Source of the DNA: Amoebophrya sp. A120 | Lineage: Eukaryota > Protista > Dinoflagellata | Length of the DNA stretch: 64,000 bases | Reading direction: 5' to 3' | Assembly: GCA_905178155.1 (NCBI GenBank) | Contig: CAJINV010000001.1 | Span: forward strand, 357,643-421,642 | In this document: positions 20,101 to 59,743 of the stretch, piece by piece | Numbering within the stretch: position 1 is the stretch's first letter | How the letters are laid out: each line of letters starts with the position of its first letter | Notes under the pieces: model-generated | What the model saw: only the letters and a program-made list of their open reading frames with translations | Databases searched by the model: none | Told to the model about the DNA's origin: nothing | Position numbers and translations under genes: made by a program

Positions 20101-21839
20101 CTTGACGCGCGAGAAAGTGGGAGCTGCGGCAAAGGTGAATTCTTCACACTACTTCTTCGGATGGACGGCAACTGCAATGTGCTGAACGCTCCTCCGAGCG
20201 GAGGAGATGATGAATTCGTCTGCGCAATTATTTGTTCCCCGACTGCTGCTGCAGGAACTAAAGGAGGTTTGTTTTCCTTGTCTTGTTCCGTGAAAATTTC
20301 GCTCTGTTTCTGTTCCGGCGAGGCAGCTATTCCGAACAAGTTGTCGATGTCCGAGAGACCGGGGCGGTTCGCGGATTCCTGTCGGTTCTGCGCGAATGTG
20401 ACGGGGTCCTCGATGCTGCTGTCTACTGAGGCCTGGATGAACGATCCCTGCCGGCTGTCGTCCTTGCTGTTTAGCTCCTGCCTGTCGAACAATTCCTTAA
20501 ATTTCGCTTCCTTTTCCTGTTGCACATCAGTCGCGGTAGTTGTGACACCTGCGCGTTCACCTGCTCGCGCAGAAGCTGCGGAATTGTTGTTCGCTGCGCT
20601 CCCAGCATTCGCGTTCGACGTCGTCCCTAGAGCGAAATAGTTGAAGGCGGAGTCCTCGTTTGTTCCTCCCGCCGCCCCGGGTACAACGGCCAACGCTCCG
20701 CTCACATCTTGCGAGAGTGTCGGCGCGAGCACGAGCGTATCGAAGGATCCCGGGATGAAGGGCGCGGACGAGGTGAGTTGCTCGTTGATCTCCGTGATCT
20801 TGCTCAATTGCTTCGCGCGGAATTGTTCGAGACCACCCAACTGGTCTCCTCCGGCGGATGCTGGTCCTTCGGCGGAGGCAGTTCTGGAGCCGGCGTTGAG
20901 AATCTCCTCTTCCAGTTCCGCATTGTCGTCCTCCTCCGTGGTATCGTCCTCTGGGAAAAAATACGCCGTTGAGCCCACGCAAACCGCGTACAAAATCGCG
21001 CAGCTAAGCAAGACCCCGCTGTCGACTGCGCCCACTTCTCCCTTGAAGAAGAGATAAGCTAGTAGCACGATGGAGAGGGCGTAGAAGCCGCAATCGCGGC
21101 GAAAGGAGACCACCGAGAGCTCCAGGGGCATCTCCGGGCACGCGTACACCGCCGCGGCCACGATGGCCAGCAGGTTGAACACCTGCGTGCCGACCACCTG
21201 CGTGACCCCGACGTCCGAGGGAATCAGGAAGAGCGATACCAAATTCGTGATCAGCTCCGGGCCGTTGCACCCCAGAGCGAGGAGCGTCGCCCCGGCCACG
21301 TCCTCGGGAATGTCAAATTCCTCTACCACCACCTCGATGGCGGGCACCAGCCACTCGTCCGTGACGGAAACTTGGGCGTAGAAAATGTAAATCACGACCA
21401 GCCACCAAATCCAGCGCCCGTCCTCCTCGACGATCTTGATTTTCTCCTCCACTTCCTCATCCGTTCTTGCGCGGTTGTCGCTGTCTTCAGCCGGAGTTGA
21501 GGATGTCAAGAGGAGCTGCGCAAGGTCCTGCTGTTCCGAAGTCGTGGACGACTGTGATTGCTTTTCTGTGCTGTCATCAACATCTTCATCTGCTCCGGAG
21601 ATCTTGGCGCTTGTTGCAATAAGGAGAACTGCTGGGGGTCGCTTATTTGGTTCTACTACTTCAGTCGCGTTTGCAAGGGCTACGCTTTGACTTTCAGCAG
21701 GACCTGACGTTGCACCGCTGCTCGTGTCCGGATTTTTCATGGTCGCCGACGCGGCTCTCGCATGCTCCGGGCAGAGCACGAGTATGTTGCTAGCCGATGC
21801 CTGGATCAGCAGCAGAAACTTTCGTACAGCAGACAGCAT
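17114..21839 (-). CDS. Cation/Ca2+ exchanger, NCKX (SLC24)-like, with very long cytosolic loop
   Basis: Alpha-1 repeat DVAGATLLALGCNGPEL...GTQVFNLL. Alpha-2 repeat GATLCAAGTSLPN...ASKDGKSNMAIANALGSNVQN, reconstituted across the introner at 17433-17695. Confidence 0.92.
17433..17695 (-). mobile_element. Introner element (TATCAAAT family), 263 bp
   Basis: TIR TATCAAATGCAAAAGTGTCTGGGTCTGGAAG. Perfect TSD CCTTG. Forms a GT...AG intron that splits the conserved alpha-2 motif. Confidence 0.95.
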
Positions 21840-40400: not shown

Positions 40401-40756
40401 CCGATAAGCGAGCGCAGCCAGTCCATGGCGCCACCCGGACACGGCTCGTCTCGGCTGTTCTCTCTATTGTCCGCTTGCGATTGCGAATGATCATCTGCAT
40501 GTTGATCGGATGGTGCTGTAGTTCCGGTGCAATCATAAACATTTGGATTTGTTCCATCACCTCTGTAGTAGAGTTGGTCATATGTCGTTCCCGCGGTATT
40601 CAATTCCTCGAATTGGTTAGTAGAATAGGGACCACTTTCTGGATATGGGCGCTCCCACTGCCAATGAGTCTCGCAAACTTCCTTGTCTTGTTCCGAATCC
40701 TCTTCATATCCGGGCCCGGGGGGGTCATTCGAGAATAAACCGTTCCAGAGCTTCAT
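28427..40756 (-). CDS. Giant (4109 aa) S/T/P/R-rich intrinsically disordered protein, uninterrupted ORF
   Basis: 12.3-kb stop-free ORF from ATG 40756. Low complexity with coiled-coil and acidic patches. Confidence 0.85.
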   Translation of the reverse strand: MKLWNGLFSNDPPGPGYEEDSEQDKEVCETHWQWERPYPESGPYSTNQFEELNTAGTTYDQLYYRGDGTNPNVYDCTGTTAPSDQHADDHSQSQADNRENSRDEPCPGGAMDWLRSLIGLGMTSNAANDAAAAAAASSSEESVKNNPEQFWKAQRKKHPEWEATARLVKNYGLQFPPAEVDEAHKLQRLQFQLQSPSPRERFLAQTESWQRTSSTEFFPGGPTGARNVSMPGMFRSKHSYRDAIIPFDDKEQQQKDTSAGVESETLTSKSKSLSPPRYNYYSWKKVGGESLHLKPTVRDVATSHICTSRTRVEKPTNSRSELRPIDAIEAPLMLSQDLDLQRVSVRPAHPPSFFGDVLLNSAPADERNSNDHLSDSESRARSKGLTPPWIRAPAVSPPRLSTKDLQAEAYGRMSSKANTVTLIPNNYSANTEDEDLSYRSVLHPGYAMSRQLPTARCYTTRTSRSPAPRPTRLPPTNVVGEAVPVGVLPFSSDVAGKIKPDLGDQQEGSVEQHQTANIAAAAFIPKGGKTEDLQQEALVQRPVEEVVDEKRQEDETRQDETVATSDQPSAVLASAPGAQLIPAGPEHQPLSASFLFSASPIGTPRQVVLDHGFAAPQLLVGELQAGTISSPEDCSTSSPNTSKPTPAASTFAPYTPSARPVGFLPGAVLRHAETDDARFEVRKLSPPMQTRGTALVQPGEKTKSALAVTKKRIEAAAEEEPSRFRLSITHTQVPNLDDIRAAVSKEATLETLTKKLAEAAVRDSAAEKSLRGLGSSSTRMMRVSGVEDHASSADSRNNFAVAAHIAVQTDISIAPGGQRMDRKTLDGRSTWLQQLAKGGNKDGISGTHETIIMDYEEERVPVYGEKPNRLKSTSSAAALPARASRTSGMNTDLSSSFAAAAEVEDQRAAFGAARETSAGINLEYKVPSMFTPSPTLAQERQSFVRAQAGAQEPVEKVASDSTLTKQMKVVPLSPPQQPTKAASVLAASASRKQASEQDMITGSLALGASSPRVLRSTDGRLTDSQPSTALPKGVSSEDAFFGAQRRDPTRVLAASATSTAGSALGEMQMRKEPITKVLSSSSPPAAGRQEYVDAPVGALSALSNKPEKKYSRAQEFLRDLRGPGATIEDTDTSAAEDEVVKPETKKSSGAALFPSTSLPVQQPASSGRPTPSASVSRQTSAVAKQDPMSPALVVVTSVTEEDRFTSSHRLQSTSQFKDRGTSPPPPTGVVTDTGKKQSGVRDFFTASAPPSPPDMRRPGTTVGNGNKDQQKAPALDSAKTTSPQIEQTVYQERGAAASLRVPKLRSGSSQERDTTAPAPIENNNVTTPRRLQTTARYSLRGDATASLDVAGASIGQESLKSSRGSDVPKSEVANKPIEKKPTIMPASDSDFPRAKQFLQQVRPGARAIDESESSSSTSEDAHGLRAPSLQVQSIDYARAQRDAEKERAQIYRSGFVPTATKPKGSTATEDTTSNRKQAEERIPFVTPIEKDHEVSSSSSDNMVAEVLAKMNLPASRFASPASLIQQPRRTSKKDDRSTLLLEDSVERKAEKPKQKPARQAPSTDSSSEEVVVAGTRPASSSARSSPSRATKPVAATSTAQKFLKNKSQVVGSDSSSDMEPVEQVVARQENRSTKSKSQPPPKKSFAASQFVFKKPQSSTSGNSSAEERPASEKQQRDSSVRKRSSPEQRPSEKKPFVPAQLFKKSLVVTDSSSSEERPGVNDAVPDSRFRSQTMPPKKPLVSPQLLKIAPDFERKLQQPATMGRLLSTRASRVATGTKVSERTNMSSASKNSATFSVSGASTQLDPPPREEFLRAAQKKSGNKFSQRKQEIISIIEEHKSKARINLGLATPPRAITPSRDTTLRATEVWSPRITLSLPGVNINDTRNSGRALSLQPPVVASLTTTSAMARTSNMSSAAVEKPSYAFPGLTTPSVLKVTRDHQSGRGETTLRRAGVLDTARITGVVGVESSLAEQEKVDLKVLSPQAHMMRQFLSTPRAPSPAPVNTRNEENKRSSSKQERSSFSINVEPQSAAAAAAPTSSLTTLESGFEEPVATASLIASEVGDEEQEPRAKASSSQPKKQTSQPPVVVERLDTKVMPTNKQMTPPQLTAPVVQPVQLPSSRDKNVGGGTSSDDVASASGSSDTSRFEMETKIGETTANKQARAEAGKDKRSGVSTQQQPSTLSYHKWVQQQGIKPLSTNLLQMGTATPISTRTVSTPRSTNVDVAASRRVASLDPVDPIGELPREHTTMVKDVATDLQERKKKSTTSTPDREQDSYSKSTPQRVLAPPSVRTTSAKGGMRTASRSVTPPAVVTTPPGSVTPLKSTPRKASKKRAALSDVLQQVDAQLREDEQKEKRSGSWKRTLRGKSSSSSVVKSSPSPRRATGESHENKVSTAVFPRKKKKSFRPSSKKKTIRGKGRAGASRGDTSTRPLATSRSPSVRVSSPETRNKDHIRSELRELSAQERLLTHTASSRKRDRSAHSENSEVSMVSGIRLPSSPDRSRSATPRGRRGVTSRSLTPATSKRASLSPVVRVRSRGAANEEEDLTADLRLVRPPGAPGGAAAMIPPSRQIFSSARTTSRQTAAPRTATSTTRGRSRRTPAVVDFRVEEVEAAAAGGEQRPSLKRKSKLRAASRSPARSLPIQSPVDLGTERYPLRQLLGTTQASTGKMNLEDVDFDTTSIEVDSSIQQEPPSVTTPQLSPRLMELSMPKQVAGAGATKSPLSSPGRSPKIKPAFGSNKPTSAQTRQQKASKYYARVARTPEAVKNHKERNTEFNAEDDSGLYSKPSVKVVRNLSAPPLRAASSSQRMGHQSEQPLYPVSVRSRDDAASGSVTTSPGGSVTASQSRRPASAQARSRGGEEQQRVVIQPMDVVPDHVVVKQRTMTDTMYRETAPAGPISILRRKTSRGSSEETTDRTKRSNTTTRGGTSQADVERSRPSRSSYEDLRDSKDTTSSSEIDLRRPPSKKTSSSKTSRGGTASIERTVRIGGSEEQILTPRGSSLTRPGRSSSPGNKRRGEEQTAVGRVARSSTPRGRSTAAPSQTLQGDVYVDTSSKASRNVSRFPAPVEERMDITSASRGSGSSEKRGTGADLEGRPGTTTTPQTSKKSTTTLLDEPADTTTRMNAATTDVVERQAPVSGTRRSSSKSKDSIGASQDSAPPVDDKGQQPPKKSSSSKKASMSTSTTEALVLDPAEEATLTIPQKVERLKSLAEERARRKTLEEEQRRQSQEKQELAAALKGSAESRVGDAEKLARVSDKMVGAGNQNIFADINDRLSAASTSGSSGSTTPTSAQQPASSEPSPPPFSEVVRKSRQAAAAAHSQKPNRPPGLQQVVEKPAPTKTPARPSNVSASSNTPARRPLTKDEMYEQLMRKWQSQRTNKTVAVVDTGNLDDVAREDQDEQRPEELQLGIFDDPQNTDFDLVFSTQTRQTQSSEERKTAISTKTLEQPSPDKNSYDVVTNGEDFLQQLPAEEQPAEQQYTPSVAAPEAATSTSALQRVLQDPAMRRFSQLMQAIEEAEESGNLADAEALLPLLEEAQNQIAQKILDSDDIVEENRESVKQAVRSSAVELNQLLFDAQSLEENLRKFNSTTLEVEPFRGSLDDLGARAALLQDEVEGLAQRVDGGGRRSGLVEEELLLPSSSSTTRSSAAMATPINQVEEKPAAKPKAKVMFQSAGKITSRGSIFKRTATQKRMQLIGDRTGTLADGLQEALKRRTTRVGKSEFRMTERGEKVMEEGEVVPTRSYAAGMSGASSASSGGAEQTSTTSPSFLYYNSTTSESSSSDDEDYYPSTFDDEEEQDGYNSVFTCRSSRQGSGYCTALEVEDEERNDVAEPVSLSSDIGAAHSSHSKYRYTLNILCENEHQQGVSSELASSSSSASSSFDDELGSLVPQFGVFSMDTSVDDEDERGSTGTVEQEALNHLEDSLVFSFSPMEDADCGAACSVLQQRQEVEEGDTATARDEEQEAQLVQQKKQPFLFSETSATEILTNIPGGGGRRSPPTSIATTEPVPVPRGGPLPAREPETRTPSTQHTNLPPDSAQQPRKSLGEMLTEVNGLHAFYELPQSQRWSMVQAHLQTTPKAASLVTLLHKKDIAAGRGNKRMSTLSL

Positions 40757-41967: not shown

Positions 41968-42972
41968 AAATATTTTGCGGCTCGAAATAGAAATACTTTG
42001 CAGCTCGAAATATTTTCCAGCTCGCAAGATTTTCCAGCTCGAATATTTTCCAGCTCGGAATATTTCCCAGCTCGGAATATTTCCCAGCTCGAAATATTTC
42101 CCAGCTCGAAATGTTTGACAGCTCGAAATATTTCCCAGCTCGAAACATTTTCCAGCTCGAACTATTTTCCCGCTCGAACTATTTTCCAGCTCGAAAAATT
42201 TTCCAGCTCGAAAAATTTTCCAGCTCGAAATATTTCCCAGCTCGCAATATTTTCCCGCTCGAAATATTTTCCAGCTCGGAATATTTTCCAGCTCGAAATA
42301 TTTTCCGGCTCGAAATATTTGCCGGCTCGAAATATTTTCCAGCTCGAAATATTTGCCGGCTCGAAATATTTCCCAGCTCGAAATATTTCCCAGCTCGAAA
42401 TATTTTACAGCTCGAAATATTTCCCAGCTCGAAATATTTCCCAGCTCGAAATATTTTCAAGCTCGCAACATTTCCAGCTCGGAATATTTTCCGGCTCGCA
42501 ATATTTTCCAGCTCGCAATATTTTCCAGCTCGAAATATTTTCCGGCTCGAAATATTTTCCGGCTCGAAATATTTCTCAGCTCGAAACGTTTTCCAGCTCG
42601 AAATATTTTCCAGCTCGAAATATTTTCCAGCTCGAAATATTTTCCAGCTCGAAATATTTCCCAGCTCGAAATATTTTCCAGCTCGAAATATTTTCCAGCT
42701 CGAAATATTTCCCAGCTCGAAATATTTCCCAGCGCGAAATATTAATTTCCCAGCTCACAACATTTTACAGCTCGAAATATTTCCCGGCTCGAAACATTTC
42801 CCAGCTCGAAACATTTACCGGCTCGAACTATTTTCCAGCTCGAAATATTTCCCAGCGCGAAACATTTTCCGGCTCGAACTATTTCCCAGCTCGAAATATT
42901 TTCCAGCTCGAAAACTTTTTCAGCTCGAAAAATTTTCCAGCTCGAAATATTTCCCGGCTCGAAATATTTTTC
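41968..42972. repeat. 17-bp minisatellite (CAGCTCGAAATATTTTC), roughly 55-60 copies
   Basis: Direct reading. The 17-aa periodicity in all three plus-strand frames reflects the 17-bp unit. Confidence 0.97.
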
Positions 42973-43144
42973 GCAACGCAAAATATTCTGCAGGGTCGCT
43001 CGGATCTGCGCGATCGCGTGGCACCTCCTTACTGCAACCCCGAAGGAAAAAAAAACTTCAGCTGATCGCGCGTCCGAGGAGAGCAACGCGATCCACCAGG
43101 CAGCTGAAGACCGAAGGCGGCGAGCGCTGTACATGGATTGCCAC

Positions 43145-43640
43145 CTATCCTACTGGGAAATCTTTCCCCTGGGTAGCCAGAATTGCTGTGCTAAGCACAG
43201 CAATTCGGGGAATTTTTCCTCCCCGAGCCAGTACCTTCCCGCTATCCCAATACCCCCTCACTATCCTGATACCCTCCCAGTACCCTACTGGGACATCTTT
43301 CCCCTGGGTAGCCAGAATTGCTGCGCTAAACACTGCAACTCGGGGAAAACAAACAGAACTCTCCCACCCCGAACCCGTACGCTCCCACTATCCCAATATC
43401 CCCCCACTATCCTGATACCCTCCCAATACCCTACCGGGAAATCTTCCCCCTGGGTAGCCAGAATTGCTGTGCTAAACACAGCAACTCGGGGAAAACAAAC
43501 AAAATCCTTCCTCCCCGAAGCCGTGCTCTCCCATTATCCTGATGCCCCCTCATTATCCTGATACCCTTCCAGTCCCCTTATGGGAAATCTTTCCTCTGGG
43601 TAGCCAGCATTGCTGTGCTAAACACAGCAACTCGGGCAAA
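43145..43640. repeat. ~135-147-bp tandem repeat, ~3.5 copies, each with a TTGCTGTG..CACAGCAA-type hairpin
   Basis: GGGAAATCTTTCCCCTGGGTAGCCAGAATTGCTGTGCTAA recurs at ~43151, 43286, 43432 and 43579. Confidence 0.92.
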
Positions 43641-44924
43641 AAAGCAAACTTTTCCCAGCCTCTTCAGCTGGAAATCCAGCTGATTTCCAGATTGATAGAA
43701 ATGGAACAGGCCTCTTCAGCTGGAAATCCAGCTGGAAACACTTTGAACAGGCCAGGTGGGAAATGCATTGAAAAGGCGTCTGCAGCTGCGTTTCCAGGTG
43801 GAAATGCGCTGCGACAGATGCCTATTCCAAATTTTTCCAGCTGGATTTCCAGCAGAGAATGCATTGCAAACGTCTGCTGCCGTCTGGGGAACGCCGCCGG
43901 CGGCCAAGCACCAGGCGAGCAGCTGCCCACCACCCTCCCCCGGCGCCCTCCCTCTGTTCGCGAAGGGAAAATCGCGCCCCAGCGCCAGGGTTGCACGCGA
44001 GCAGCTGCCCACCACCCTGCCCCGGCGCCCTCCCACCCTCTGTTCACGAAAAGGCCGGTAGAGGGCGCCACCGTCCGCCGTCTCTGTCTTGGAGGGTGCG
44101 CGCGAGGGAAACAGGCGGGGGCGAAACAGACTGCATGCGGGCTAACACGGGGGGCGCCGATGTTGTCCGGGGGTGCTAGGGGAGGGTGGTGGGACCCTGC
44201 GCCTGGGGGGCAATGAATGCCCCGCCCCGGCGCCCGTCTTCCATCGATCCACGCGCGCGGCAGGGGCCCCAACGCGCCCCCGTTCTGCAAAGCTGCGCGC
44301 GGGAGAAGGGCGAGGGGGCACCAAGGCGCACAGGGGCGGGGAACACAGGCAGGCGGCACGAACGGGCCACACCACAAACATGCGGGCGGGGCGTCACGCG
44401 AAAGCGCCTCGAATGGCGCCGACTGTTCCCCTGCTTCCTTCCCCCGCCGACTGGCGGCCGCCCTTTGCCGCGCTTTGCGTTGTTGCTTGGGCCTAAGGCT
44501 TGCCGCCACGCAAACGCGCGCCCAGTGCGGACGGGGTCCTCGCGCTCGCACAACGACGGGAACCACGGGCGCCATGGCGCTCCGCCTTCGTTCTTTCAGC
44601 AAGAAGCGGCGCAGATGCCTGGCCCCGCCCTGCTTCAAAAATTTTTTCCCTTGCCCCTCTGGCGTTTTTCTTTCCCCCCCGTCCACTCGTTCGCCCTCCC
44701 ACTGCGCGACATAAGTTGCGGCCTTGTAGGTGCTCGATTCATCAGCTTCAGCTGTCAAATCTGCAACGAAAATCCATTTGCAAATGAAATGCTTTCGCGT
44801 ATCGACCGCACCTGGTAGAGGGGAGCAACTATGTGATGTGTAGGAATATTTCGCTTGAGCTTGAGTTTCAAAGCTAAGGCTACAAGCGTACGCCAACAAA
44901 CGCGTTTTTTTTATTGCTTCAGGT

Positions 44925-47900
44925 TCACCCGCCCGCACGCGTGATTGCAATGACCCTTTCCACCGTCTTTCCGAACTGTTTCCCGGAAAGCCCCGTGCTG
45001 CCCTTGTGGTCTCTCACAATTGTTGCAGTTCCTCCCGGTCCGTGCAAAACGTGGTGGGAGCCACGAACATTCAACTTCAACTGCGTTTTGGCTGCCATGC
45101 CTGATTCACTTTCTACATTCTCCACCGTAAGAAGGCCACTTTTACTAAGCAGATGGAGTCCGCGCTTCGTCTGACGGGTCGTCACGCGCTTCTGCGCGAC
45201 TATGTCCCACACAGCCTTCCCTTTGCGCGGCAAGCATTCATCTCTAATGCTGGCGGAACCACCACTTTTCTTTCCGCGCCTCTTCGCATTCGCAGCGGGC
45301 ATGCTGCGCGTCGACGAAACTGAACTCTTCGGGGGCTCGTCCAGGTCGTCAATATCAAGCCCTGCGCCGCGGCAAGACCGCCGGAACGCTTCATCGGCGG
45401 ACAGTTCATGCTCTGCTTCCCACGTTTTGCGAAAGTGTTCTGCCCGTTCCCGAGCAGAGTTCACTTTGAACGCGCCGGCTCGACCTCGGGTCTTCACTTT
45501 TTCCTTGCGTGCTTGCGGCTGCTCTTGGCCGTAGTCAAGATCGAGCTCCAGGTTTTCATCATCAACTCGAAGTGAGGCGGGCTCCCCTTCTCGGAGCAGT
45601 GCCGCCACGTCTGCCTGGAGCTTTTCCGAGTCCGGCCCGAGGAGACAACCACTTTTGTCATTCTCCAACACCGCGAGAAGGGCTTTCGGGTCGTCCAGTC
45701 CTATCAACGCCGCTTGTGCTATCTGCTCGGCTGACAAGTCACTACAATTTGTCCCATCCTGCGTGTCGGACCAAAATTCCTCTACCAAATATCGGTCAAT
45801 TGCATCCTCAGGCGCCGCTGGAGCAAAGGGCACGCGTCCAGTTATGCACCTGCGACCCTTTTCTGAGACACCAAGGAGGTCGTTCTCGGACAGGTACGAG
45901 TCGATGGCATCGATGATTTGCTGATCGTGCGGCGTGAAGTCGCCCAAGGCCATCCAAGTATCCGGCGCAGCGGCATGCGCAGCTGTATTTTCATCATAAG
46001 ACGATGAATCGGAGCCCGAAAAAACAGCGCCAAAGAGTGCGCGCTTCTTCCGCCGCCCAAGTTGCTCTAACCAGTGCATGCGTCGCAAGTTCCACCTTCG
46101 GTGGATATCGCTTGGAAACGTGCTTGGAGGCTTTCCCACCAGCAATCCCGTGGTATGGCGCATGCCGAAAAACTCGATCTCCGCCGCGGAGTTGGGTCGA
46201 TCCAAAAAATGTCCGCGCAACCCGTCACCCCGCAGGTTTCCGACGAGGGCAATCCCGACTTCCCTCGCGGCATCCTCATAGCTCATTTGAGGCAAATTCT
46301 CCGCGGCACGATATGTGTTCCATTCCTCCATACTACGTGATCGCTCCACGTGAACTCGGCCTTCATCCACGTATTTTGCGAAGTCGACAATCTCGAGGGC
46401 AATAAAGGGACGCGTGTCGATCTGCGCGAGAGATGGAGTGTGCAGTTTCTGACTCACCCAAAATCCCCGCACGACTTTTGTGGCATCATCATCCGTGGCT
46501 GGCGCAGCTGTGTAGCGAGGCTGAAAACAACTTCCATCAGGATTCGTTATTGCCATTTCCATCTTCTTTCCTGGCCACGTAAGAGCGCTCGAGTTCATTC
46601 CTTCTGCTGGGTTGAGTACGTTCAGACGTGGCACAGCGGCGTCGGTGAACAAAAAGCTATTGCAGTGACTCGAACCTCCAGCACAAGAAAATGCGGGGTA
46701 CAGCAATATGGTGACGACAGGCAAGCCGTCGTCCCAAAATAGGTACAACCAGCTGTCCAGCTCGTAGGTGTTGGAGCCGCGAGTGGGACTCAAATACGGC
46801 CGAAGCGACGAACAGCGCCACGGGAGACACAGTGTCTCCTGTCTGCACATGATAGCTGGCGCTGCCTGCGCAAAGAAGGACACCGCGAGGGATTGCAGGG
46901 CAGCCCAATTCCAATCATCAACAACGTTGAAGATCCATCCTACGTGAAACAGTTGACGGCGGGTTTCTTCGGACTCCCGTAGCCAATCCTCACACTTTGC
47001 GCCCGCAAGATGCACACGTTGAAACGGAACAACGCGACGCTCGAAAATCGCCTGCAGGGAAGTGTCGATACTGGGCCGCCTGGTTAGCTCCCCGAACTGG
47101 CTGTGGACCAGTGGGTTCGCCGGGTCTTGATCGCCGGAATTCACCTTGAAAAACTTGTCCTTGTCTAGAAAATTGGCGAGCTCAGCATTTCTGTCCTGGG
47201 TGTAGCATGCCACACACGCTTGACCATCTTGCTTGAATGGGATTCCCGGAATTGCACCCGAGCCTTCTTTTGCCACCGGCGCGAGTGCAACGCGTGAATC
47301 CGACGCGGTCAGCGGCCTGTGAAACGGCCCAGGCTTCGTCATGACGCTCGACTGCGCGCTGTTTGCCGATTGCTTTTCTCCCCCTTGGAGCTGCGTCAGC
47401 TTTTCACAGCCTGCAGAAGTATGAATCCGAATCGTAGTTAGAAACAAGTTCCGTCCGTCTCTCTGTTTCTCATCTATTTTCATCAGTATCTATTTGAACG
47501 AGTCATTGAATAAACACCCAACAGTCAAGAAGAATTATACTCATCGGGTCAGAAGTGCGAGCCACATCCTCAAACGCAGGCACAGCCGCAATGAGCTCCA
47601 TGCGCCCCCGCTCCGGCTGGGGGTGGGGCTCGCCTCTCTGCTCCACAGTAGGATCGACTTGAGCAGTCCCGCTCTTCAGAACGTCACCAAGTTGTAAGCA
47701 GAGCAGTCTTAGGTTTTTCGGCAAGATGCCCACCCGCTTGTCGTTCAACTGGGGAATGCGAATGGTTACCTTCTCTGCATTGTCTGGAAATGTCAGAGCG
47801 TCGACAAATGCTCCGCGTCCATTCAACTCTTCTGCCTTTCCAAGCGAGTGAATTTCGACAAAATCATTTTTGTGAAGTCGTTCCTCCTTGCCATTTGCGG

Positions 47901-49632: not shown

Positions 49633-52600
49633 TCAGAGGGAAGCCGTACCCCGAGTTCTCTCGCTGACTTCCACCACTCTCTCCATCGTCTGCACAAACT
49701 GCTTCCCCGTCAGCGGTGCCGTCCCCCGGTGGTCGCGCACCATGGTCGCGGATCCCCCCGGCCCGTGCAAAACCTGGTGCGATCCCCGCGTGTTCAGGCG
49801 CAGCTTTTTCACCCCGGTTTCCGGATCCGCGTCAATCCCAACAAGACCCGCCTTGCACAACAGGTTCAGTCCGCGCTTCGTCTGCCGCCACCGCATCCGC
49901 TTCTGCGCCAGTACGCCGACGACCGCACGAGCACGCTGCAGGCGGTGTTCGGTCATGGCAGTAAAGGAACTCCTATCAATGTCATCTACGTCATCATCGT
50001 CCAGACAGCTCGCGGTTGTCTCTTTACTGGCAACCGATTTCGTCTCCTCCAACCGGAAGCCGCCCTTCCGGGCGGACCGCTCGATCGCCTCGTCCGCCGT
50101 CGTTTCGTTCTCGGCTTCCCACGCTTCGCGGAACTGCCGGGCCCGGTCACGCGCGGACTGCAGATTGAATTTCCCGGCTTCTCCGCGAGTCTTCTCCTTC
50201 TTCTTCGGCATTAACCAGGAGGTCAAACCGGAGTACGAAGCGGCCGCTTCTTGACTTTCTGCTGGTGTCGTTGCTCCTTGTTGGTGCAGAAGAGTTGCAA
50301 CTTCGGCTTGTGCCGCTTCCATGCCCGGACCGAAAGCGCACCCCTGCGTCTTGTCCGCGAAAACCTCCTGGAGCGCCTCGGGGTCATCGCATCCAACCAG
50401 AGCGGCCTCGAGCAGCTCCTCCGCGGTCAGATCGTCGCCCGACGTCGGAGTCGGGCTGGTGGGGGCTCCGTCGCTGTCATCTCGATGTTCCTGCCAGAAT
50501 TTGTCCTCCAGGTACTTGTCCATAGCGTCCTCTGGTTGGGGCAGAGCAAACGGAATCTGTCCCGCGATGCAGCGCCGGTTTTTTGCACACACTCCGACGA
50601 GGCCATTCTCAAAGAGATACGCTTCAATAGCGTCGATCACCTGTTGGTCGTAGGGAGAAGAATCGCCCCGCGTAATCCAGTGTGACCCGGAGGACGCGTG
50701 TGCCGGCCCACGGAAAACGGCATTGGCGGCTGCGCCGTGAAACACGGCGCCAAAACACGCGCGCTTTTTTTGCTCGCCCAGACGTGTCAGCCAGTGCATG
50801 CGCTTCAGGTTCCAGCAGTTCTTCTTGTCATCAGCAACGAGGTCGCCTTTCTTATCGCGCGCGCCGTAGAGTTCTCGCTCTTCCGCTGTGTCCGGGCGGT
50901 CCAAAAACTGCTTTCGCAGTCCCGTCCGCAGCTGCTGCCCCCCAAAAAGCGATTGCGCAATTGACCTTTCTGCGCCGTCCTCTCCAAAGCACGCTGCCAT
51001 GGGGCCCAGCTGCTCTGCCATCTGTTGAACTTTCTCGGCTCCGTCCGCAAGGTAGTGCTGGAAGTCAATGATTTCGACAGCAAGGAACGAAGTGGTTTCG
51101 ACTTGGACCAGATTCGGCGCGCAATGCTGCCGGGAAATCCAGAAGCCGCGCGGAATGGTGGCTCTAGGATCGTCTTGTGCAGCCGACGTGCTAGGTTGAT
51201 TCTTATTTGCCGGTTTGCTTTTATTTCCCTTCTTGTTTCTCGTTGCCGGCGAAACCGGGTGCGGCTGTGCTTTCGGCAAGGCCTGGTCTCGCACGTCATA
51301 ACTGGGCACCACTGTGGAATGCAACCAATTTGATGCTAGGTTGCGACAGTCGATAAGATTGGGTCTAATGAACGGTATCACAACAGGGCGGCCGTCGTCC
51401 CAGAAAAAGTACAACCACTCGTCGTGGATTGTGCTCCGATTCGCATGAATGGCCCACGGCAAGCACAGGGCCTCGCGGGCGGCGACCACTTCCGGGGCAG
51501 CCTGCGCGAAGAATGACACAGCGAGTTTCTGCAGGAGCGGCTCCACGCATTGTTCAGCCGCAGAGGTGTCGCCGCGGAGATGTTGCATCAGATATCCCAC
51601 GTGAAATAGGGCGCGCCGGGTGCTCTCTCGTTCTATCAGCCAGTGGTCGCAGTTGACGCCCGGGCGGTGGACATGCAGAAACGGCTTGATCCTGCGGTTC
51701 ACGATTGAGACAAGCGTTGCGTTTACACTAGTTCGCCTTGTCAAAGAACCGACGTGCTGTGTGTACAAACTATCATTCGGGTCGGCGCCAAAACTCGCAT
51801 TGTAATGCTTTGCGCGCTTCTTTGTCTTCGTGTGAAGAACATCCATCAGTTTGGCATGGTGTTTTGCATCAAAACATTCCATGAATTCCACTACCAAATT
51901 GCGGTCGTACGAACTCGAGTCCTTGCCCTCGAAACCGGTCGGCTGCTTTTCGTCCACCGCTTCGGCCTCTGCTGCGATGCCGCTTTTCTTCAACTCGTCA
52001 AGCGTCTGCTTTGCTTGTTTGAGAACGTTTGTGAGCTGCTTCCTGGCTTTGCCTTGCACAGCGTTGTCGGAAGAGGTGGAAACTCCTTCAGCGGATTGCG
52101 CGACCTGACTCGGCGGAGCAAAAATGATCTTCTTCTCGAGCAGCGCTTCCGCAACAGCGATTTCCTTTCCGAGCGATTTTGCGTCGCCGGATTCACGACC
52201 GGCCCGCAGCGCGATCACCAGTTCCCCTGCTAATTCTGCATAATCCGTATCGTCAACAACATGATCGTTTTGTGCGCCAGATGCAGCTGAAGCGGTCGCT
52301 CCACTCCCAGCACCACTGTTGGGAGAAAATTCATCCATGATGATCTCTTCCCGTACTAGCTTGAGGTTTTCAGGCAAAATGCCCAATTTTGCATTTCGCA
52401 GTGTCGGCACCCGAATCGTGAGCTTCCCAGGCTGTTCCGGATGTTTCACACTCTCGACAAAAGCTAGCTTCCCGTTGAACTTCGCCATGTGCTTGTTGGT
52501 TTCCGCGCAGAACGAGTGAATCTCCACGAGGTCGCCTTTGCCCAGCGGTCCGAAGTCGCGGCAGGCTTCGATCTCTTCAGTACGTTCGAAATCTGGCAAG

Positions 52601-53373
52601 GCAAGTTGCGCAAGCGACGGCGTCAGCGCAACTAATCTGTTCCGTTCCTCTTCCTCGTCGGAACTGTCTGGCTCCATCCGGACGTTTTCGGTTTGTTTGA
52701 CGACAATCATGTGCTTCGTACGACAGAACCCCAGCGAAGCGAACGTAGTTGTCGCGTCTTTTCTTTCCAGGGTGATGCGTGGTCGTGGCGCGGTGGGCGC
52801 GTCGTGGGTTGGCAATATGTCCACGTACGGCTCATCCAGGCTGGCGATCTCGTAGGCTACCGGTTTCAAATCTACGTGGCGTGTGGCCTCAAATCCGCGC
52901 GCCATGGAAAACGGGTCTCCAAAACGCATGAACCTCATCGAGTGCCGGTACCAGCGGTCCAACTGTTTCGCGGTCAGCACTTCCAAGTCGAACTTGCCGC
53001 TTATTGTATCAAGAGCAAGTTCTCGGGCGCCGGGCAGAAAAATATTGATGCTGAAGTAGCACCCTGTTTCGAGCAGGAAGCGCTGGTTATCGGCAAAGAG
53101 AATAATGGTGTTTTTCGCTGCAGTTTTCTTCAACAACGGAAGGACATTCGCTGGGTCCTTCAGCTGTTCGCAGCAAGCTTTCACCTCGAACTCCCTCTTC
53201 ATCGCTTTCAGCTCTTCCGGTTCTTCCGGAAGGTTCTCTTCGTCCATGCTGGTATCCTGCAGCATCGTCATATCGTCCAGCTTTCCCATGACCAAGCGCG
53301 GAGGGCCGTCCGGGAACCTGAGCCCCTGCTTTTTCAAGAACGCGGTCATCTCCTTCTGCCTGCTTGAAGCCAT
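49633..53373 (-). CDS. HicA-like-domain family paralog 2, intronless, 1246 aa
   Basis: Long ATG-initiated ORF sharing blocks with paralogs 1 and 3 (EPYVD...PRPR.TL...TF.SLGFCRT.HM, FFAQA.P, WNLKRMHWL, RGSH.VLHGPGG). Confidence 0.88.
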   Translation of the reverse strand: MASSRQKEMTAFLKKQGLRFPDGPPRLVMGKLDDMTMLQDTSMDEENLPEEPEELKAMKREFEVKACCEQLKDPANVLPLLKKTAAKNTIILFADNQRFLLETGCYFSINIFLPGARELALDTISGKFDLEVLTAKQLDRWYRHSMRFMRFGDPFSMARGFEATRHVDLKPVAYEIASLDEPYVDILPTHDAPTAPRPRITLERKDATTTFASLGFCRTKHMIVVKQTENVRMEPDSSDEEEERNRLVALTPSLAQLALPDFERTEEIEACRDFGPLGKGDLVEIHSFCAETNKHMAKFNGKLAFVESVKHPEQPGKLTIRVPTLRNAKLGILPENLKLVREEIIMDEFSPNSGAGSGATASAASGAQNDHVVDDTDYAELAGELVIALRAGRESGDAKSLGKEIAVAEALLEKKIIFAPPSQVAQSAEGVSTSSDNAVQGKARKQLTNVLKQAKQTLDELKKSGIAAEAEAVDEKQPTGFEGKDSSSYDRNLVVEFMECFDAKHHAKLMDVLHTKTKKRAKHYNASFGADPNDSLYTQHVGSLTRRTSVNATLVSIVNRRIKPFLHVHRPGVNCDHWLIERESTRRALFHVGYLMQHLRGDTSAAEQCVEPLLQKLAVSFFAQAAPEVVAAREALCLPWAIHANRSTIHDEWLYFFWDDGRPVVIPFIRPNLIDCRNLASNWLHSTVVPSYDVRDQALPKAQPHPVSPATRNKKGNKSKPANKNQPSTSAAQDDPRATIPRGFWISRQHCAPNLVQVETTSFLAVEIIDFQHYLADGAEKVQQMAEQLGPMAACFGEDGAERSIAQSLFGGQQLRTGLRKQFLDRPDTAEERELYGARDKKGDLVADDKKNCWNLKRMHWLTRLGEQKKRACFGAVFHGAAANAVFRGPAHASSGSHWITRGDSSPYDQQVIDAIEAYLFENGLVGVCAKNRRCIAGQIPFALPQPEDAMDKYLEDKFWQEHRDDSDGAPTSPTPTSGDDLTAEELLEAALVGCDDPEALQEVFADKTQGCAFGPGMEAAQAEVATLLHQQGATTPAESQEAAASYSGLTSWLMPKKKEKTRGEAGKFNLQSARDRARQFREAWEAENETTADEAIERSARKGGFRLEETKSVASKETTASCLDDDDVDDIDRSSFTAMTEHRLQRARAVVGVLAQKRMRWRQTKRGLNLLCKAGLVGIDADPETGVKKLRLNTRGSHQVLHGPGGSATMVRDHRGTAPLTGKQFVQTMERVVEVSERTRGTASL

Positions 53374-53692
53374 CTTCGTGTCCGGCGGTGTGTATTGTGT
53401 GCAAGGACAACGGGCGCTGAAAATTCTGTAAGAAAAAAAAAAAGTAAGAGGACTACGTAAAAAAAAACTTCTCGTAAAAACGCCTTATTTGAACTTGGAA
53501 TAGGATAAATGCAACAATTTTCTCTCAACGAGATAAGCCACTTTGGGTTAGAAATGTAGGCCATCGACGGGAGTCCGCCCGTGAACAAGAAGAGAAAAGT
53601 CGGTTTCCGGGCCTGCAGGAGACAGATAGAAAATGTGATAGGGGGCACATTTTTGCACTAGCATGATGGATACACTACAAAACCAAATGACA

Positions 53693-55321
53693 TATAGAGA
53701 CGAAAAAGGTGATCTTCAGCAGTGTTCTTATCCCTAAAGGAATTCGCAGCATACCGTCGGGATTTGCCCTGTTTTTTGCGCCAACGCAGGCGCTGCAGCT
53801 TTTATGGTCGCGCCTGCGTAGGAGTGCTGTTGCCTTCCCTGGTGGGTTTTTTCACGCGGCCCAGGCGTCTTTCTAGAGGAACCAACAGGCACGCTAGCAC
53901 CCCGGCGAGCCTAGACATAGACTAAAGAGGCCCCCCCACTGCGCAGATCGACGCGCCCCGCGGGCACTAGCAACACACCCACCCGGCGCAGGCGGGCATC
54001 TTTTCCGCGGCCCCGAGCCCGACGTACTCGCGACCCAAAAAAGGCCGCAAGCCGGCTCGTGCAGACTTGGCGCGCAGGCCCCTCGAGACCTCTTGGAACT
54101 CTTCAAGCGCGCCCCCATCTCTCACCCGCCGCCCCAATCACTCACCGTTGGCACCGGACCGCTTTCGCGGCCGTGGTGGACGCACTTGCAGAAGACCCGA
54201 AAAGCTTCCCGCCTGGTGTTCGTTTAAACGCTCAAAAAAGATAGATAAGAACGCCTACTGCAACGACCTGTGATTGATGTTTTGGCACGAAACAGAGTTG
54301 GAGCTTCTGCGCCGAATGTTCCCGCTCTCGAAGACTGCTGCTCTTATCCTCCACGCCATGCATAGATAAGAACACGTTTGTAACGACCAGAAATTGGTGG
54401 CTGGCACGAAGCAGAATGACATCTTCTGCGCCAGATGTTCCCGTTCTCGCAAAAGTGCTGTTCTTATCCTCCAAATGGTGCATAGATAAGAACACGTTTG
54501 TAACGACCTAAAAGTGGTGTTCTTATCTATGCACGAACAGGAGGGATAAGAACAGCACTTTTGAGAGAACGGGAACATCTGGAGGAGCAGCTTCAATTCT
54601 GATCCAATTACCCTACTGCAGGTTGGAAGCTGGAGAGCGACATTCCGACACTGCTGCCCAGTCGTGGTGGTCCTCGCGGGGAGGGGAAGCATTACGCGAA
54701 GTTGACGGCTATCCGAAGGCAGCTGGCTTTTTCGAAGTTGGTGAGGGGGGGCCTGCCGTTGCCAGCATTTTACGACGTTCGCCCCCACTGGTCTGCGCGG
54801 CTGGCTTATCCGGGTGTTCTCTTCCGCGATAAGCCAGCGCCCCATCGGTCCTAATTTAGGACCGATGGCACGGCGCAGGCAACAAAGACAACACCGCAGG
54901 GGCTAGCATCTGCTATCTGACACAAAGAGAGACGAATGGGCCCGCACACTGCCGCGGCCCGGTGCGACCGCCGGCGTAGCCCCGGCTTGGGGGGGATCTT
55001 TGGGGAAAAAAAGAGCCCCTCCAAGCTGGGGCATCAGCTCGCGCCCAGGCGCGCGAACTTGGACGCAGTGGCTGGCGGTTATTCTGTCAGCGCGCAGCGC
55101 GTTCCCTGGCGCATGCGCTGGGGCTGCGCTAAGCACGAAAGCGCGACCCTCTGGAGGATGCGCGGCGAAGGCTTTGGATAGCCCTGGGCGGTCTCGCTTT
55201 TGTTGGCCTCAGACACGCCAGGCCTCGCCTAGAATGAAAAAAACTCACGAATCGCGACGGTATGGCGCGATTTCTCTTAGGGATAAGAACACGCGGGAAG
55301 ATCACCTTTTTCATCTCTATA
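53693..55321. mobile_element. 1629-bp non-autonomous TIR (foldback-like) DNA element with TAT...ATA ends
   Basis: ~85-bp imperfect TIR TATAGAGAYGAAAAAGGTGATCTTC...GTGTTCTTATCCCTAA. Perfect TSD TGACA at 53688-53692 and 55322-55326. Internal ~120-bp repeats and a central palindrome. No transposase ORF. Confidence 0.9.
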
Positions 55322-55921
55322 TGACAACCCTAAAAGTTTCAATACATGCTGTCAGACAGACTTACAACACGAATAAAGTCAGTGTATGTGCATGTACAAA
55401 TACAATTGCAATCACAAAATTGTAGATCTTCACCTTGAAGATGACCTTTTTCAATCTTTTCCCTCTACGAGGAGCTACCAAAGATAGGATTAGAAACTCC
55501 ACCTCGCTGCTTTCAATTTCATCTGAACGAAGAAGCAAACAAATCGAAATCATGCGATGGATTGTGCTCATACTTGAAAGCCCTTCTACAAATCAGCGTT
55601 GTTTTTGTCGCTCAACATACCCTTCTGACGAAGTCAATGACTACATAGCTCCGCCCAATCGAATCCGAGCATCACGACTGCTACACTGATCTTGACGAGA
55701 CGATTGTGATTGTGCCGGACCTTGTTACGCAGACGTAACGAGAGCCATCGCAAGAATGCGCAGTCCAGTACCAATCATTTTTCGTGGCCTTGCGTCACGG
55801 ACCACAACATCTTTCGCCACTGCTCGAACAGATGAATTATGCTATTGCGAGTGGAGGTGTTGGTTCAATTTCAAGAATGGGGGCACACAGCAAACAAATC
55901 GATTCATTAGTTGTAGGTTCT

Positions 55922-58900
55922 TCAACTACCGCCGATTTTTGACTGATCTGAATCTACACCAATTTCAGCGACTTTTTTCATACTCTCCACGAACTGTCTC
56001 CCCGTAAGCGGTGCGCTTCCTTTGTGATCCCTCACCAAAGTTGCGGCGCCTCCAGGTCCATGGAGAATCTGATGCGACCCGCGGGTGTTCAGACGCAACT
56101 GCTTGACACCGGACTCGGGATCGGTATCAATCCCAATCACTCCCACCCTTCGCAAAAGATGCAGCCCACGCTTCGTCTGCCGCCACTTCATTCGCTTCTG
56201 CGCAAGCACGTTGAGTACCGCCCGAACGCGTTCCAGGCGATCATCTTCAATGTAGTTACTGCTGCCAGCCCCATCCGCGGAGCCAAGACCACTCGGAGCC
56301 GTGTCTACAACTTTACTCGCTCCTGCAGATGAATTCGCATCCACCCAACGCAGACCGCATTTGCGCACAGACCGCCCCGTTGCTTCATCAGCGTCTTCTC
56401 CGTTATTCTCTTCCCAGGCTTCCCGAAATTTCCGTGCGCGATCGCGAGCGGTGTGAAGGTTGAATTTTCCGGCTTCACCACGAGTTTTAATCTTTGCTTT
56501 TGGCACCAAATGCTCCGCCGCCTGCACGTGAAGGTCCCGCAGCTTGTCATCGAGCCCTTGCTTGATCAGTGCAGCCGCCTCGGTCTGCAAACAGTCCAGC
56601 TCCGGGCCGAAGAGGCTCTGACTGCAGTCACCTAGCACTTGTTCCAGGGCCTCCGGATCGTCCCAGCCTATCAGGGCGGCCTGCACGAGCTCGGCGGCAT
56701 TCAGATCCTCTGCGCCGACCGTCCTTGATGCGGGTGCGCCATCGTCATCGATGTCGCTCCAAAAAAGGTTCTCCAAGTATTTGTCCATCGGGTCTTCTGG
56801 GACTGGCAGGGCAAACGGAATGTGGCCAGTGATGCAGCGTCGATTTTGGTCCACGAAACCGAGAAGAGAATTCTGAACCAGGTACTCCTCGAGCGCCGTA
56901 ATAATTTGTTGGTCCAGCGGTGTGGAGTCCCCGAGCACAATCCATTGCGGTGACGCCGACGCATGGGGATGAAACGCGTGAGAGAAGCCCGGGGCAGAAG
57001 AACAAGGACCGCAACTACCGGCACCGTGGAACAAAGCACCGAAGCACGCGCGCTGCCGACGCTCGCCCATAGCCGTAAGCCAATGCATCCGCTTCAAATT
57101 CCATCCAACATCGTAGTCGGTTTTGTCCAGAAGCGCGCCGTTTTCGTCGCGTTTACCGAAGAAAGCGATCTCCTCTGCCGTGTTAGTGCGGGAAAGGAAT
57201 TGCTTCCGCATGCCGGAGACTTCGTTGCGGTTTCCAAAAAGGATGTGCGCCTGCGCGAAATGGTACTGATGGTTTGATAGGTCGGCAATAATCTCGGCAT
57301 GTAGCTGTTCCTTCTCTGTTTCGGACAGCGGGCCTTCTCTCTCCTCCAGCCGCTTGGCCGCGGTCCCGAGGACAGACAACATTTTACAATTTCTCTTGCC
57401 AGCCGTAATAAACTCCTGAAAGTCCACGACTTCAACGGCTAGAAAGGAACCGGTCTCAATCTCGACAAAACTTTGCTGGAAAGGTTTGATTGACGCCAGG
57501 AATCCACAGAGAACTGTATCATCGCACAGAGGATCATCGTCGTGTTTCTGGTGCTTTTTCTTCTTCTTCTTTCCGACACCCGCATCGACGGTCATGCTCC
57601 TATTTCCAACATCATACAAGGGGACGCGGTCCGTGTGGAGAAACTTGTGCATGTCCTGTCGAGCACTGCTCCAGCATTGCGTATCCTTATCGGAGGACGA
57701 GGGCGTAGGCAATTGCATGAACGTTACAATTGGGCCGGACGACGGATGCCAGAACAGATAAAGCCAGCTTTCATCTGTTCCTTCTCGCGAGGAGTACACT
57801 GAACACGGAACACACCACTGCAGACGGTCCGCGATGACGTCCGGCACCGCTTGAGCGAAAAAAGATACGGCAAGCGCGCGGAGGAGGAACAAACGGCGGC
57901 CCGCTTTGTCGTGTTTCGGTTCTCGCCCCAAAAACTCAAAGAGCCAACCAATCTGAAATAGGATGCGCCTCGTCTCTTCGTTCTCGAGCAGAAAGTCATC
58001 GCAAGTCGACCCAGGAACGTGAATATGCTTGAAACGGCGCACGCATCGCAGCAGCACCGTCGATAACGAGTGCGCAAGACTTTTTTGCGTTGTCATCTTT
58101 CCGAGACTGCCCGGAACCAACGACGATATCCGAGAACTTTTCGTGTCGGGGAGCTTGCACTGTCTTCGGAGTCTGCGACATTCATCCTCATCCTTTTCTC
58201 TTCGATCGCGTACATCCGCGATGAACTGAAGTAACTGGTCATGCCGCTCTTCTGTGTAGCAGTTTTTGTAAGTCGACAGTCGGGCTACTCGACTGTCACG
58301 ACCTGAAACAGCTTCGTCTTGTTTATTTTCGCACTCGCTTGGCTTCTCGGACGCCAAAACAATCCGGTGTTCAGCAAAATGGACTGCCTTCTTTAACTGG
58401 TTCCGCACTTTTCCCCGCAGGAAATAGTTCGTCTCGTTTTCTGTTGTAGAGCTAGCTGCCGTGACCCCCGGATCGCTGGGATCTTTCGCCCCAACGCAAC
58501 GCCGGTTTAGCAGCTCTTTTGCCCGAGTTACTGCGCTTCGCAACTTGTTGCGCGCGTCGGAAGCGGCGGTGCCGTTGTCGTGCGCGGCCCTCAGTTTATC
58601 AAGTAACTCGGAGGCTGCTGCCCGGGCGTCCTCTGCGCCACCGGCGTCGGCGCCGGTCTCTACCGCCAGTGCTGCCAGAAGCTCGTCATCGTGCTCAAAG
58701 AACGGGCAGTCGTCCAGCCGCCGCACGTCATGCACGGAGAATGTCCGCCGAAGGTTGTTGAGTAGCGGAATTTTTACATCAACGAAGGACTCGCCGTCCG
58801 AAGAGATCTGCACATCCTCAACGATGGCACGTTTCCCATTGAACTTGATCGCGTCCTCTTGGTCTGCACCATCGTTGCAAATGCGAATCTCCACGACATC

Positions 58901-59743
58901 AAGCCGCATGATCAATGGCTGGAAATTCGACGCAAGAGAGACAGCTGAACTTCGCGGTGAAGATGCGGGAGTGTCGTGCACCATCAATTTGTCAATTTCC
59001 GCTACACGTGAAGATATGTACTTCTGCTTTTCGTGGCTATGGACCCGTTGGTTGACGATTATCATATGCTGCGTTCGGCAGAAGCCCAAGGACGTGAAAG
59101 TTGATTTCGTATCGCTCGCTAAGAGGGTCCTACGCGGCCGCGGCGGACATGGGGCGTCTCCAAAAGGAAAAATGTCGACATAGGGCTCGTCAAGGTTCGC
59201 TATTTCGTACTCGCCCGTGGACACGAGTTCTTCTTCAGGTCCCTCCACGCCAGCAACCGACCACCCACTGGCCAATTCCTCGAATGTATTTTTCACCCAC
59301 TTGTCCAAAGTGTGAGCAGTTAAACAATGAGCTTCATCCTGCGAAGAAAAAATGTGCCGAGATTCGTGCTCCGGCTGTCCTCCTGCTTCTTCTTCTCGAG
59401 GTGGGTTTCGAGATGGTATGAAGTGCTCACCAGTGGGAATCAGGAAGCGCTGATTGTAAGCGAAAATCACAATTGTGTGCTTCTCCTTTGTCTTTTCCAA
59501 AAGAGAAATCATTTTCCTTTTCGCCGAGACTTTCAACTCTTCACAAAAGCATTGCTTTTCTAGCTCCTTTTGTGCGAGTTTCTTCGCTTGCTTTTCTAGT
59601 TCCTCCTGTGCGAATTTCTCCGCCAATGCCGGCGTGTTGAGCACAATCGTCGCCACTTGTTGGGCTAACAAGTCCTGACTCGGTGTCTGTGATGCCATTC
59701 TGACTGCTGTCAAACCATCTGCTTCATCTTCAATACTAGACAT
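55922..59743 (-). CDS. HicA-like-domain family paralog 3, intronless, 1273 aa
   Basis: Long ATG-initiated ORF with the same block order. C-terminus LRLNTRGSHQILHGPGGAATLVRDH. Confidence 0.88.
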   Translation of the reverse strand: MSSIEDEADGLTAVRMASQTPSQDLLAQQVATIVLNTPALAEKFAQEELEKQAKKLAQKELEKQCFCEELKVSAKRKMISLLEKTKEKHTIVIFAYNQRFLIPTGEHFIPSRNPPREEEAGGQPEHESRHIFSSQDEAHCLTAHTLDKWVKNTFEELASGWSVAGVEGPEEELVSTGEYEIANLDEPYVDIFPFGDAPCPPRPRRTLLASDTKSTFTSLGFCRTQHMIIVNQRVHSHEKQKYISSRVAEIDKLMVHDTPASSPRSSAVSLASNFQPLIMRLDVVEIRICNDGADQEDAIKFNGKRAIVEDVQISSDGESFVDVKIPLLNNLRRTFSVHDVRRLDDCPFFEHDDELLAALAVETGADAGGAEDARAAASELLDKLRAAHDNGTAASDARNKLRSAVTRAKELLNRRCVGAKDPSDPGVTAASSTTENETNYFLRGKVRNQLKKAVHFAEHRIVLASEKPSECENKQDEAVSGRDSRVARLSTYKNCYTEERHDQLLQFIADVRDRREKDEDECRRLRRQCKLPDTKSSRISSLVPGSLGKMTTQKSLAHSLSTVLLRCVRRFKHIHVPGSTCDDFLLENEETRRILFQIGWLFEFLGREPKHDKAGRRLFLLRALAVSFFAQAVPDVIADRLQWCVPCSVYSSREGTDESWLYLFWHPSSGPIVTFMQLPTPSSSDKDTQCWSSARQDMHKFLHTDRVPLYDVGNRSMTVDAGVGKKKKKKHQKHDDDPLCDDTVLCGFLASIKPFQQSFVEIETGSFLAVEVVDFQEFITAGKRNCKMLSVLGTAAKRLEEREGPLSETEKEQLHAEIIADLSNHQYHFAQAHILFGNRNEVSGMRKQFLSRTNTAEEIAFFGKRDENGALLDKTDYDVGWNLKRMHWLTAMGERRQRACFGALFHGAGSCGPCSSAPGFSHAFHPHASASPQWIVLGDSTPLDQQIITALEEYLVQNSLLGFVDQNRRCITGHIPFALPVPEDPMDKYLENLFWSDIDDDGAPASRTVGAEDLNAAELVQAALIGWDDPEALEQVLGDCSQSLFGPELDCLQTEAAALIKQGLDDKLRDLHVQAAEHLVPKAKIKTRGEAGKFNLHTARDRARKFREAWEENNGEDADEATGRSVRKCGLRWVDANSSAGASKVVDTAPSGLGSADGAGSSNYIEDDRLERVRAVLNVLAQKRMKWRQTKRGLHLLRRVGVIGIDTDPESGVKQLRLNTRGSHQILHGPGGAATLVRDHKGSAPLTGRQFVESMKKVAEIGVDSDQSKIGGS

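Follow-up and report, generated by a model that had tools for sequence, protein, structure and literature searches.

We analysed a 64,000-nucleotide stretch of the Amoebophrya sp. A120 genome, here called the window, following up an earlier note that had described an intergenic 1.6-kb relative of the introners between the second and third of a set of 'HicA-like' paralogs. Three paralogs of 852-1273 aa lie on the minus strand (44925-47483, 49633-53373 and 55922-59743), each with a short C-terminal domain, and the element is indeed placed between paralogs 2 and 3 (Table 1). The label 'HicA-like' is weak: the Pfam family HicA_toxin matched one of the three C-terminal pieces, with 13.1 bits (E 0.11) against a cut-off of 27. 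From an RNA-like run, a contig of paralog 2 begins at 53605, which leaves 88 bp to the element, and the stop codon of paralog 3 lies 596 bp past the right target-site duplication (TSD). On the minus strand, a pyrimidine tract within 53605-53640 runs up to a CAG near 53613. Trans-splicing might use this CAG, about 80 bp from the element, as its acceptor, in which case the element would sit in an outron or promoter region.

Table 1. Coordinates (positions in the window) of the element, its parts and the two flanking genes.
Feature	Position	Strand	Remarks
Flanking gene, paralog 2	49633..53373	-	1246 aa; Pfam families: none at E<=0.01
Left TSD copy, TGACA	53688..53692	.	basis: sequence
Element proper	53693..55321	.	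1629 bp; TAT..ATA ends; non-coding
Left terminal inverted repeat (TIR)	53693..53777	+	85 bp; starts TAT-N7-AAAAA
Motif GTGTTCTTATC in left TIR	53722-53732
Decayed piece of third 120-bp unit	54214..54282	+	motif at 54244-54254
120-bp unit 1	54283..54401	+	CTTATC-N16-GATAAG at 54343-54370
120-bp unit 2	54402..54519	+	CTTATC-N16-GATAAG at 54463-54490
Central palindrome (unit 2 plus inverted partial unit)	54430..54583	.	CTTATC-N17-GATAAG at 54522-54550
227-bp segment, in about 2 copies only	54605..54831	.	contig depth 44.4 against 24 in the flanks; joints in run X4
Second hairpin	54842..54868	.	13-bp perfect arms; position 54866 differs in the commoner variant
Right TIR	55238..55321	-	84 bp; motif copy at 55282-55292
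Right TSD copy, TGACA	55322..55326	.	basis: sequence
Flanking gene, paralog 3	55922..59743	-	1273 aa; Pfam families: none at E<=0.01

The TAT..ATA ends and the 5-bp TSD attributed to the element are both present. The span previously given, 53688-55326, marks the correct region and includes both TGACA copies, which lie outside the element proper. The two TIRs align with one gap and are identical at 19 of the 20 outermost positions and at 61 of the 72 outermost. The sixth flanking base differs, both here and in the small elements described below. Reading the ends as TG..CA, with these letters taken from the TSD, was rejected, as no duplication lies outside them. The boundary is fixed independently by contigs of public sequencing runs: a 78-nt contig at depth 78.8 begins exactly at 53693, and the contig of the unique left flank ends at 53722, 30 nt within the element.

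Six independent small TAT..ATA elements of 251-391 bp lie elsewhere in the window, at 1026, 3177, 12436, 15666, 17433 and 25049. Their 5-bp duplications are perfect in four cases and agree in 4/5 letters in the other two, so that with the long element five of seven are perfect and two of seven have 4/5 letters; near-identical duplicates at 5684, 7975 and 10126 belong to a segmental repeat and were left out of the count of seven. In that region (1-14724), blocks are repeated at 98-100% identity around a 437-N run (4558-4994), with more copies at 88-96%, owing to either tandem duplication or an assembly artefact; through this repeat the 251-bp element is present three times and the 391-bp one twice. 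The long element had been put at about six times the length of the intronic ones; it is longer, by a measured ratio of 4.2-6.5. Its kinship with them holds for the end signature and does not extend to alignable sequence: nothing outside the long element matched it in the window by blastn (word 7, E<1), and past TAT-N7-AAA the small introners do not share its TIR. One of the small elements, of 263 bp (17433-17695), interrupts a sodium/calcium exchanger gene (17565-21839, minus strand; PF01699, E 1.7e-23).

No transposase or integrase family of Pfam matched any of the 17 stop-to-stop frames of at least 60 aa in the long element (E<=1). A coding role was rejected, given that the 196-aa ORF at 54255-54845 has no Pfam match and that the frames yielded only one weak match to DUF3649 (E 0.012), below the cut-off. 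Four Rfam matches, all to miRNA hairpin families and far under the gathering scores, were also rejected. Excision of each small element together with one TSD leaves a long minus-strand frame (6/6), whereas the same operation on the long element opens none (best 17+32 codons). The long element is therefore intergenic, as had been proposed. The RNA-like run X4 provides neither cover nor a joint across it, and the copy at 53693-55321 is not an intron.

Further copies were sought in contigs from six of twelve listed public runs (X1, X3, X4, X7, X9 and X10) mapped on the element, in which summed depth is not a true copy number; X9 contributes just 253 nt and X10 no reads. In run X1, 125 contigs matched; the flanks have depths of 23.9 and 24.0, and the summed depth at single inner sites (54005, 54187 and 54866) reaches 317-350, about 13-15 times that of the flanks. 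This would correspond to roughly 13-15 related copies. As X1 may be the source sample of the window, the figure speaks for the copies within this genome and adds no independent support. Foreign sequence adjoins the exact left end in two contigs before 53693 (run X3, from the same sample as X1) and in one before 53694 (X7). More foreign flanks occur in a 3534-nt contig of X1 and in two contigs behind 55321 in X4. The element is thus mobile and multicopy, with copies at other insertion sites; a single copy, which the earlier note had named as evidence against its reading, is not what the flanks and the raised depth indicate. No joint across an empty site appeared in the runs mapped, of which the sole DNA-like one over the junctions may be the source sample, and no transposon-circle joint was seen in the contigs, which drop rare forms.

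The commoner variant of the element, read from collapsed contigs of two runs, differs from the copy here in 58 of about 643 letters of the left-centre part (about 9%). It carries a 5-bp deletion at 54153 and a 22-bp deletion at 55005, and 245 other letters replace the 227-bp segment. With its left end taken as colinear from X7 (53694-54080, no gaps), its reconstructed length is 1629-5+18-22 = 1620 bp. One X1 contig, at depth 24.1, joins 53990 to 54564 with only 22 letters on the short side, possibly from a copy that lacks the central array.

Run X4, whose type is only guessed as RNA, covers the flanking genes but leaves the intergenic sequence on either side of the element uncovered. One of its contigs, 1380 nt long, represents the commoner variant and has a depth of 237, compared with 18.5 for the neighbouring gene; a 35-nt TIR contig reaches 426. 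X7 adds a piece of 998 nt (depth 5.3) that is attached to a foreign flank. Some other copy probably lies inside transcripts, of which the contigs give neither level, strand nor locus. Transcription would be expected of copies that serve as introns or form part of a UTR. In X4, foreign sequence is also joined to the final 35 nt of the right TIR (55287-55321), and this joint falls at an AG inside the motif; either splicing into the TIR or truncation of a copy may account for it. The long contig of this run begins with 29 foreign letters at 53957.

Introners of A120 have been described in detail. According to the text of Farhat et al. (2021; PMC7789003), their inverted repeats consist of TAT, seven variable bases and at least three A, direct repeats of 3-5 nt lie at their borders, and they were likened to MITEs; no transposase was found there in A120, in a survey restricted to introns of 40-1000 bp. 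Both ends of the long element fit TAT-N7-AAA as the motif is worded in that text, and the border repeats, the MITE-like character and the lack of a transposase are shared as well. The element differs in its length of 1.6 kb, in its much longer TIR and in not being an intron.

Most A120 families are classed as TIR DNA elements in the tables of Gozashti et al. (2025; PMC12130899). Among the 58 A120 rows, only fam86 fits in having a similar length and such a TIR. Its entry (supplementary file 8, row 598) gives 1619 bp, a TIR of 84 and satellites found, the class TIR DNA with superfamily unknown, and four copies with intron splice sites, the copy count being read from column 5 because the splice-site tallies sum to it. 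The likeness covers length (1629 bp here, 1620 bp in the commoner variant), TIR length (84-85), an internal satellite (the 120-bp repeat) and non-coding character. The listed copies are intronic, whereas the copy here is intergenic and 10 bp longer; the automated TSD call for fam86 is 4 bp (score 0.67) against 5 bp here, and its row mentions no palindrome (PMC12130899). We consider it likely that the element belongs to fam86, a match made on dimensions (length, TIR length, satellite) and not on sequence. The terminal 8-mer of the element is absent from all 14 supplementary files of that paper.

A second listed family, fam38, has 5-bp TSDs, TA/TA termini and integrase-like ORFs, and was tentatively called Ginger-like, though, by the text, it is without the ends expected of Ginger (PMC12130899). 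The element here shares the 5-bp TSD and TA/TA termini with fam38, which is distinct in its length (about 808 bp), its TIR of 49-53 and its ORFs homologous to Copia/Gypsy integrase, of which the long element has no coding remnant. The value of the long element as bait for an autonomous relative, suggested earlier, is consequently limited: it carries no coding remnant, and its TIR past TAT-N7-AAA is unlike that of the small introners. For finding the transposase, fam38 is the better bait. Intergenic copies of introner families have already been recovered (PMC9860276). Given the probable membership in fam86, the element is likely an intergenic introner copy and not a bridge between two kinds of element. 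The proposed link between introners and DNA transposition stands in so far as this is a TIR element of the introner class; the link itself is already in print (PMC7789003; PMC12130899).

The TIRs of 85 and 84 bp, the TSD, the lack of a transposase and the dispersed copies fit a non-autonomous, MITE-like TIR DNA transposon. The locus probably holds such a transposon of the A120 introner class, likely of fam86, that landed between two genes and not in an exon. A transposase encoded elsewhere would act in trans on the TIRs, where, by analogy, it probably binds GTGTTCTTATC, an 11-bp motif 30-40 bp inside each end. The ends would be joined to the target with a 5-nt stagger, repair giving TGACA twice; phage Mu also makes 5-bp duplications. 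The element might leave its site by cut-and-paste or as an IS3-type copy-out circle, the circle being the form in which IS3-type transposition proceeds. Copies landing in exons would be spliced as non-canonical introns.

The TA..TA ends together with fam38 point to an integrase-like enzyme. The leading candidate is a DDE enzyme of the IS3/IS481/Ginger group, an assignment that we regard as about evenly balanced. Ginger2/TDD elements end in TG..CA, in contrast to TA..TA here, and filing the element under Ginger2 was excluded on its ends, as filing under IS3EU was on its TSD. IS3EU/GingerRoot elements share TA..TA termini and TIRs with the element and have TSDs of 6 bp against 5 bp here, whereas the 4-5 bp reported for Ginger2/TDD agree with ours (PMC10045372). 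Scans with the TIR gave no match in viral contigs, none in prokaryote genomes and two in metagenomes; the latter were rejected as chance matches of 22-24 nt in contigs of 37-38% GC, with no further similarity.

Copies of a TIR motif recur in the interior of the element. With at most one mismatch, GATAAGAACAC occurs eight times in the 64 kb (0.70 expected); all eight matches fall within the element, two in the TIRs and six internally. Of inverted pairs of the form CTTATC-N16/17-GATAAG, for which 0.01 are expected, the window has four, each of them inside the element. A 120-bp period spans 54283-54519 (2.0 copies, 82% matches). The recurrence of the TIR motif in both orientations and in repeats of about 120 bp, noticed earlier, is thereby borne out, as are a palindrome of about 150 bp at the centre and a hairpin near 54842-54868. 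In the central stem, 54430-54496 pairs with 54517-54583 around a loop of about 21 nt (54497-54516), with weaker pairing out to 54412/54601. Its predicted fold has -115.9 kcal/mol (z -18.3 against 40 dinucleotide shuffles). A further hairpin (54800-54838) lies mostly inside the 227-bp segment and has its CTTATC-N17-GATAAG at 54805-54833.

The best palindrome centre, 54506.5, is 0.5 bp from the midpoint of the element (54507.0), which agrees with the centring claimed in the earlier note; 0.1% of candidate centres lie as near. Among the seven independent elements, a significant inner palindrome was found in four (three of the six small ones and the long one) and none in the other three. The scores are 21, 33, 13 and 42 against shuffle maxima of 12, 10, 11 and 13 (30 shuffles per element, five for the long one), and the offsets from the midpoint are -0.5, 2, 1 and -0.5 bp, all four within 2 bp. 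The small elements, aligned to their own mirror, look like decayed whole-length palindromes, and several A120 families are marked in the published table as palindromic or as having a TIR near full length (PMC12130899). Centring in three small elements and the palindromic A120 families together suggest that it is a property of the class; since the palindrome is common to three of six small elements, the long element is not singled out. The small elements concerned, all intronic, are 1026-1416, 12436-12722 and 17433-17695. The first two have unrelated TIRs but have in common a GCTAGCTAG-type motif that borders the inner palindrome.

We somewhat favour the view that the centring is inherited symmetry of the class and not a special function. 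Within the paired part, the inverted unit and its neighbour, unit 2, agree at 38/40 and 18/18 positions, against 33/40 and 17/18 between units 1 and 2; beyond the stem, agreement with unit 2 falls to 12/18. This closeness to the neighbour inside the stem only fits recent inversion or hairpin conversion. The inner arms lack mirror similarity (33/200 shuffles score as high), and of eight windows one reaches 9/200. A fold-back of the whole element was rejected on this ground, and equal arm lengths without mirror similarity are awkward for a plain decayed fold-back. Under inherited symmetry, the motif-bearing 120-bp unit would have undergone duplication, and the former fold-back axis would hold an inverted partial unit that hairpin-driven conversion keeps like its neighbour.

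Alternatively, the central palindrome may be a working part. Its paired TIR motifs would either be bound by transposase or, at the apex of a DNA loop, adopt a cruciform or bent shape; both ends would be brought into register, and selection would keep the arms equally long, as with the central gyrase site of phage Mu. We consider this unlikely. It would explain why the centre lies so near the midpoint even though arms of 450-600 bp share no detectable similarity, and it accords with the four CTTATC-N16/17-GATAAG pairs confined to the element. The central strong gyrase site of Mu (PMC10052514) is a precedent for a position-dependent site in mid-transposon, by analogy only and with no homology claimed: in Mu, gyrase binds the site, and its position in the middle has been demonstrated to be important. 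The halves of the commoner variant measure 808.5 and 810.5 bp against 813.5 and 814.5 bp here, balanced within 1 bp after changes of -5, +18 and -22; however, two of the eight sign combinations of these three indel sizes give the same balance, so that this is no test, and the variant, besides being read from collapsed contigs, seems to carry an extra partial repeat right of centre. Moreover, three of the seven elements exist as insertions without a significant inner palindrome, the X1 contig joining 53990 to 54564 (22 letters on the short side) may come from a copy lacking the centre, and no protein is known to bind the palindrome. In its widest form, this alternative would have the TAT..ATA introner transposons of Amoebophrya with 5-bp TSDs built around a position-fixed central palindrome that bears copies of the end motif and at which an undescribed integrase-like transposase pairs the ends. 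This would be a eukaryotic counterpart of the central Mu site and the reason why these elements fold into spliceable hairpins; we find it similarly unlikely.

It is very improbable that the class spreads through RNA, a route on which DNA breaks would be filled by copying hairpin intron RNA or the cDNA made from it, and which the symmetry would serve. The depth of the commoner-variant contig in X4 relative to the neighbouring gene, the very stable fold of the centre and the precedent of internally symmetrical fungal introns (PMC8469720) would be in keeping with such a route. Those fungal introns are described as lacking TSDs, in contrast to the duplications found here in all seven elements; the sharp TAT..ATA ends, the lack of a poly(A) tail and the intergenic insertion also speak against it, and X4, besides being only guessed as RNA, shows neither level nor strand. 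A nested second small element at the centre, or a chance local inversion of the satellite, is hardly credible and largely refuted: tandem units with internal inverted motifs invert easily and the centring was picked after the fact, but no TAT..ATA ends with a duplication surround the palindrome, its units run on leftward as a direct array, few candidate centres lie as near the midpoint, and the centring recurs in three other elements.

Inherited symmetry remains our preferred account. The element adds one copy to a class that is already known, and its family is probably among those listed. Its own contribution is small: a 1.6-kb member that lies between genes with a clean 5-bp TSD, and midpoint centring of the inner palindrome in all four elements of the window where that palindrome is significant. 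A literature search, thin on subscription journals, found no description of midpoint centring in Amoebophrya introners. A working centre would be the sole novel angle of the element. If arm length were under selection, it would supply a testable cis requirement for the enzyme moving A120 introners, for which PMC7789003 found no transposase and PMC12130899 points to integrase-like ORFs.

Two other features of the window lie apart from the element. An uninterrupted 4109-aa ORF on the minus strand (28427-40756) matches no Pfam family. At 41968-43660, a 17-bp satellite runs for about 1 kb and is followed by a repeat of longer period.
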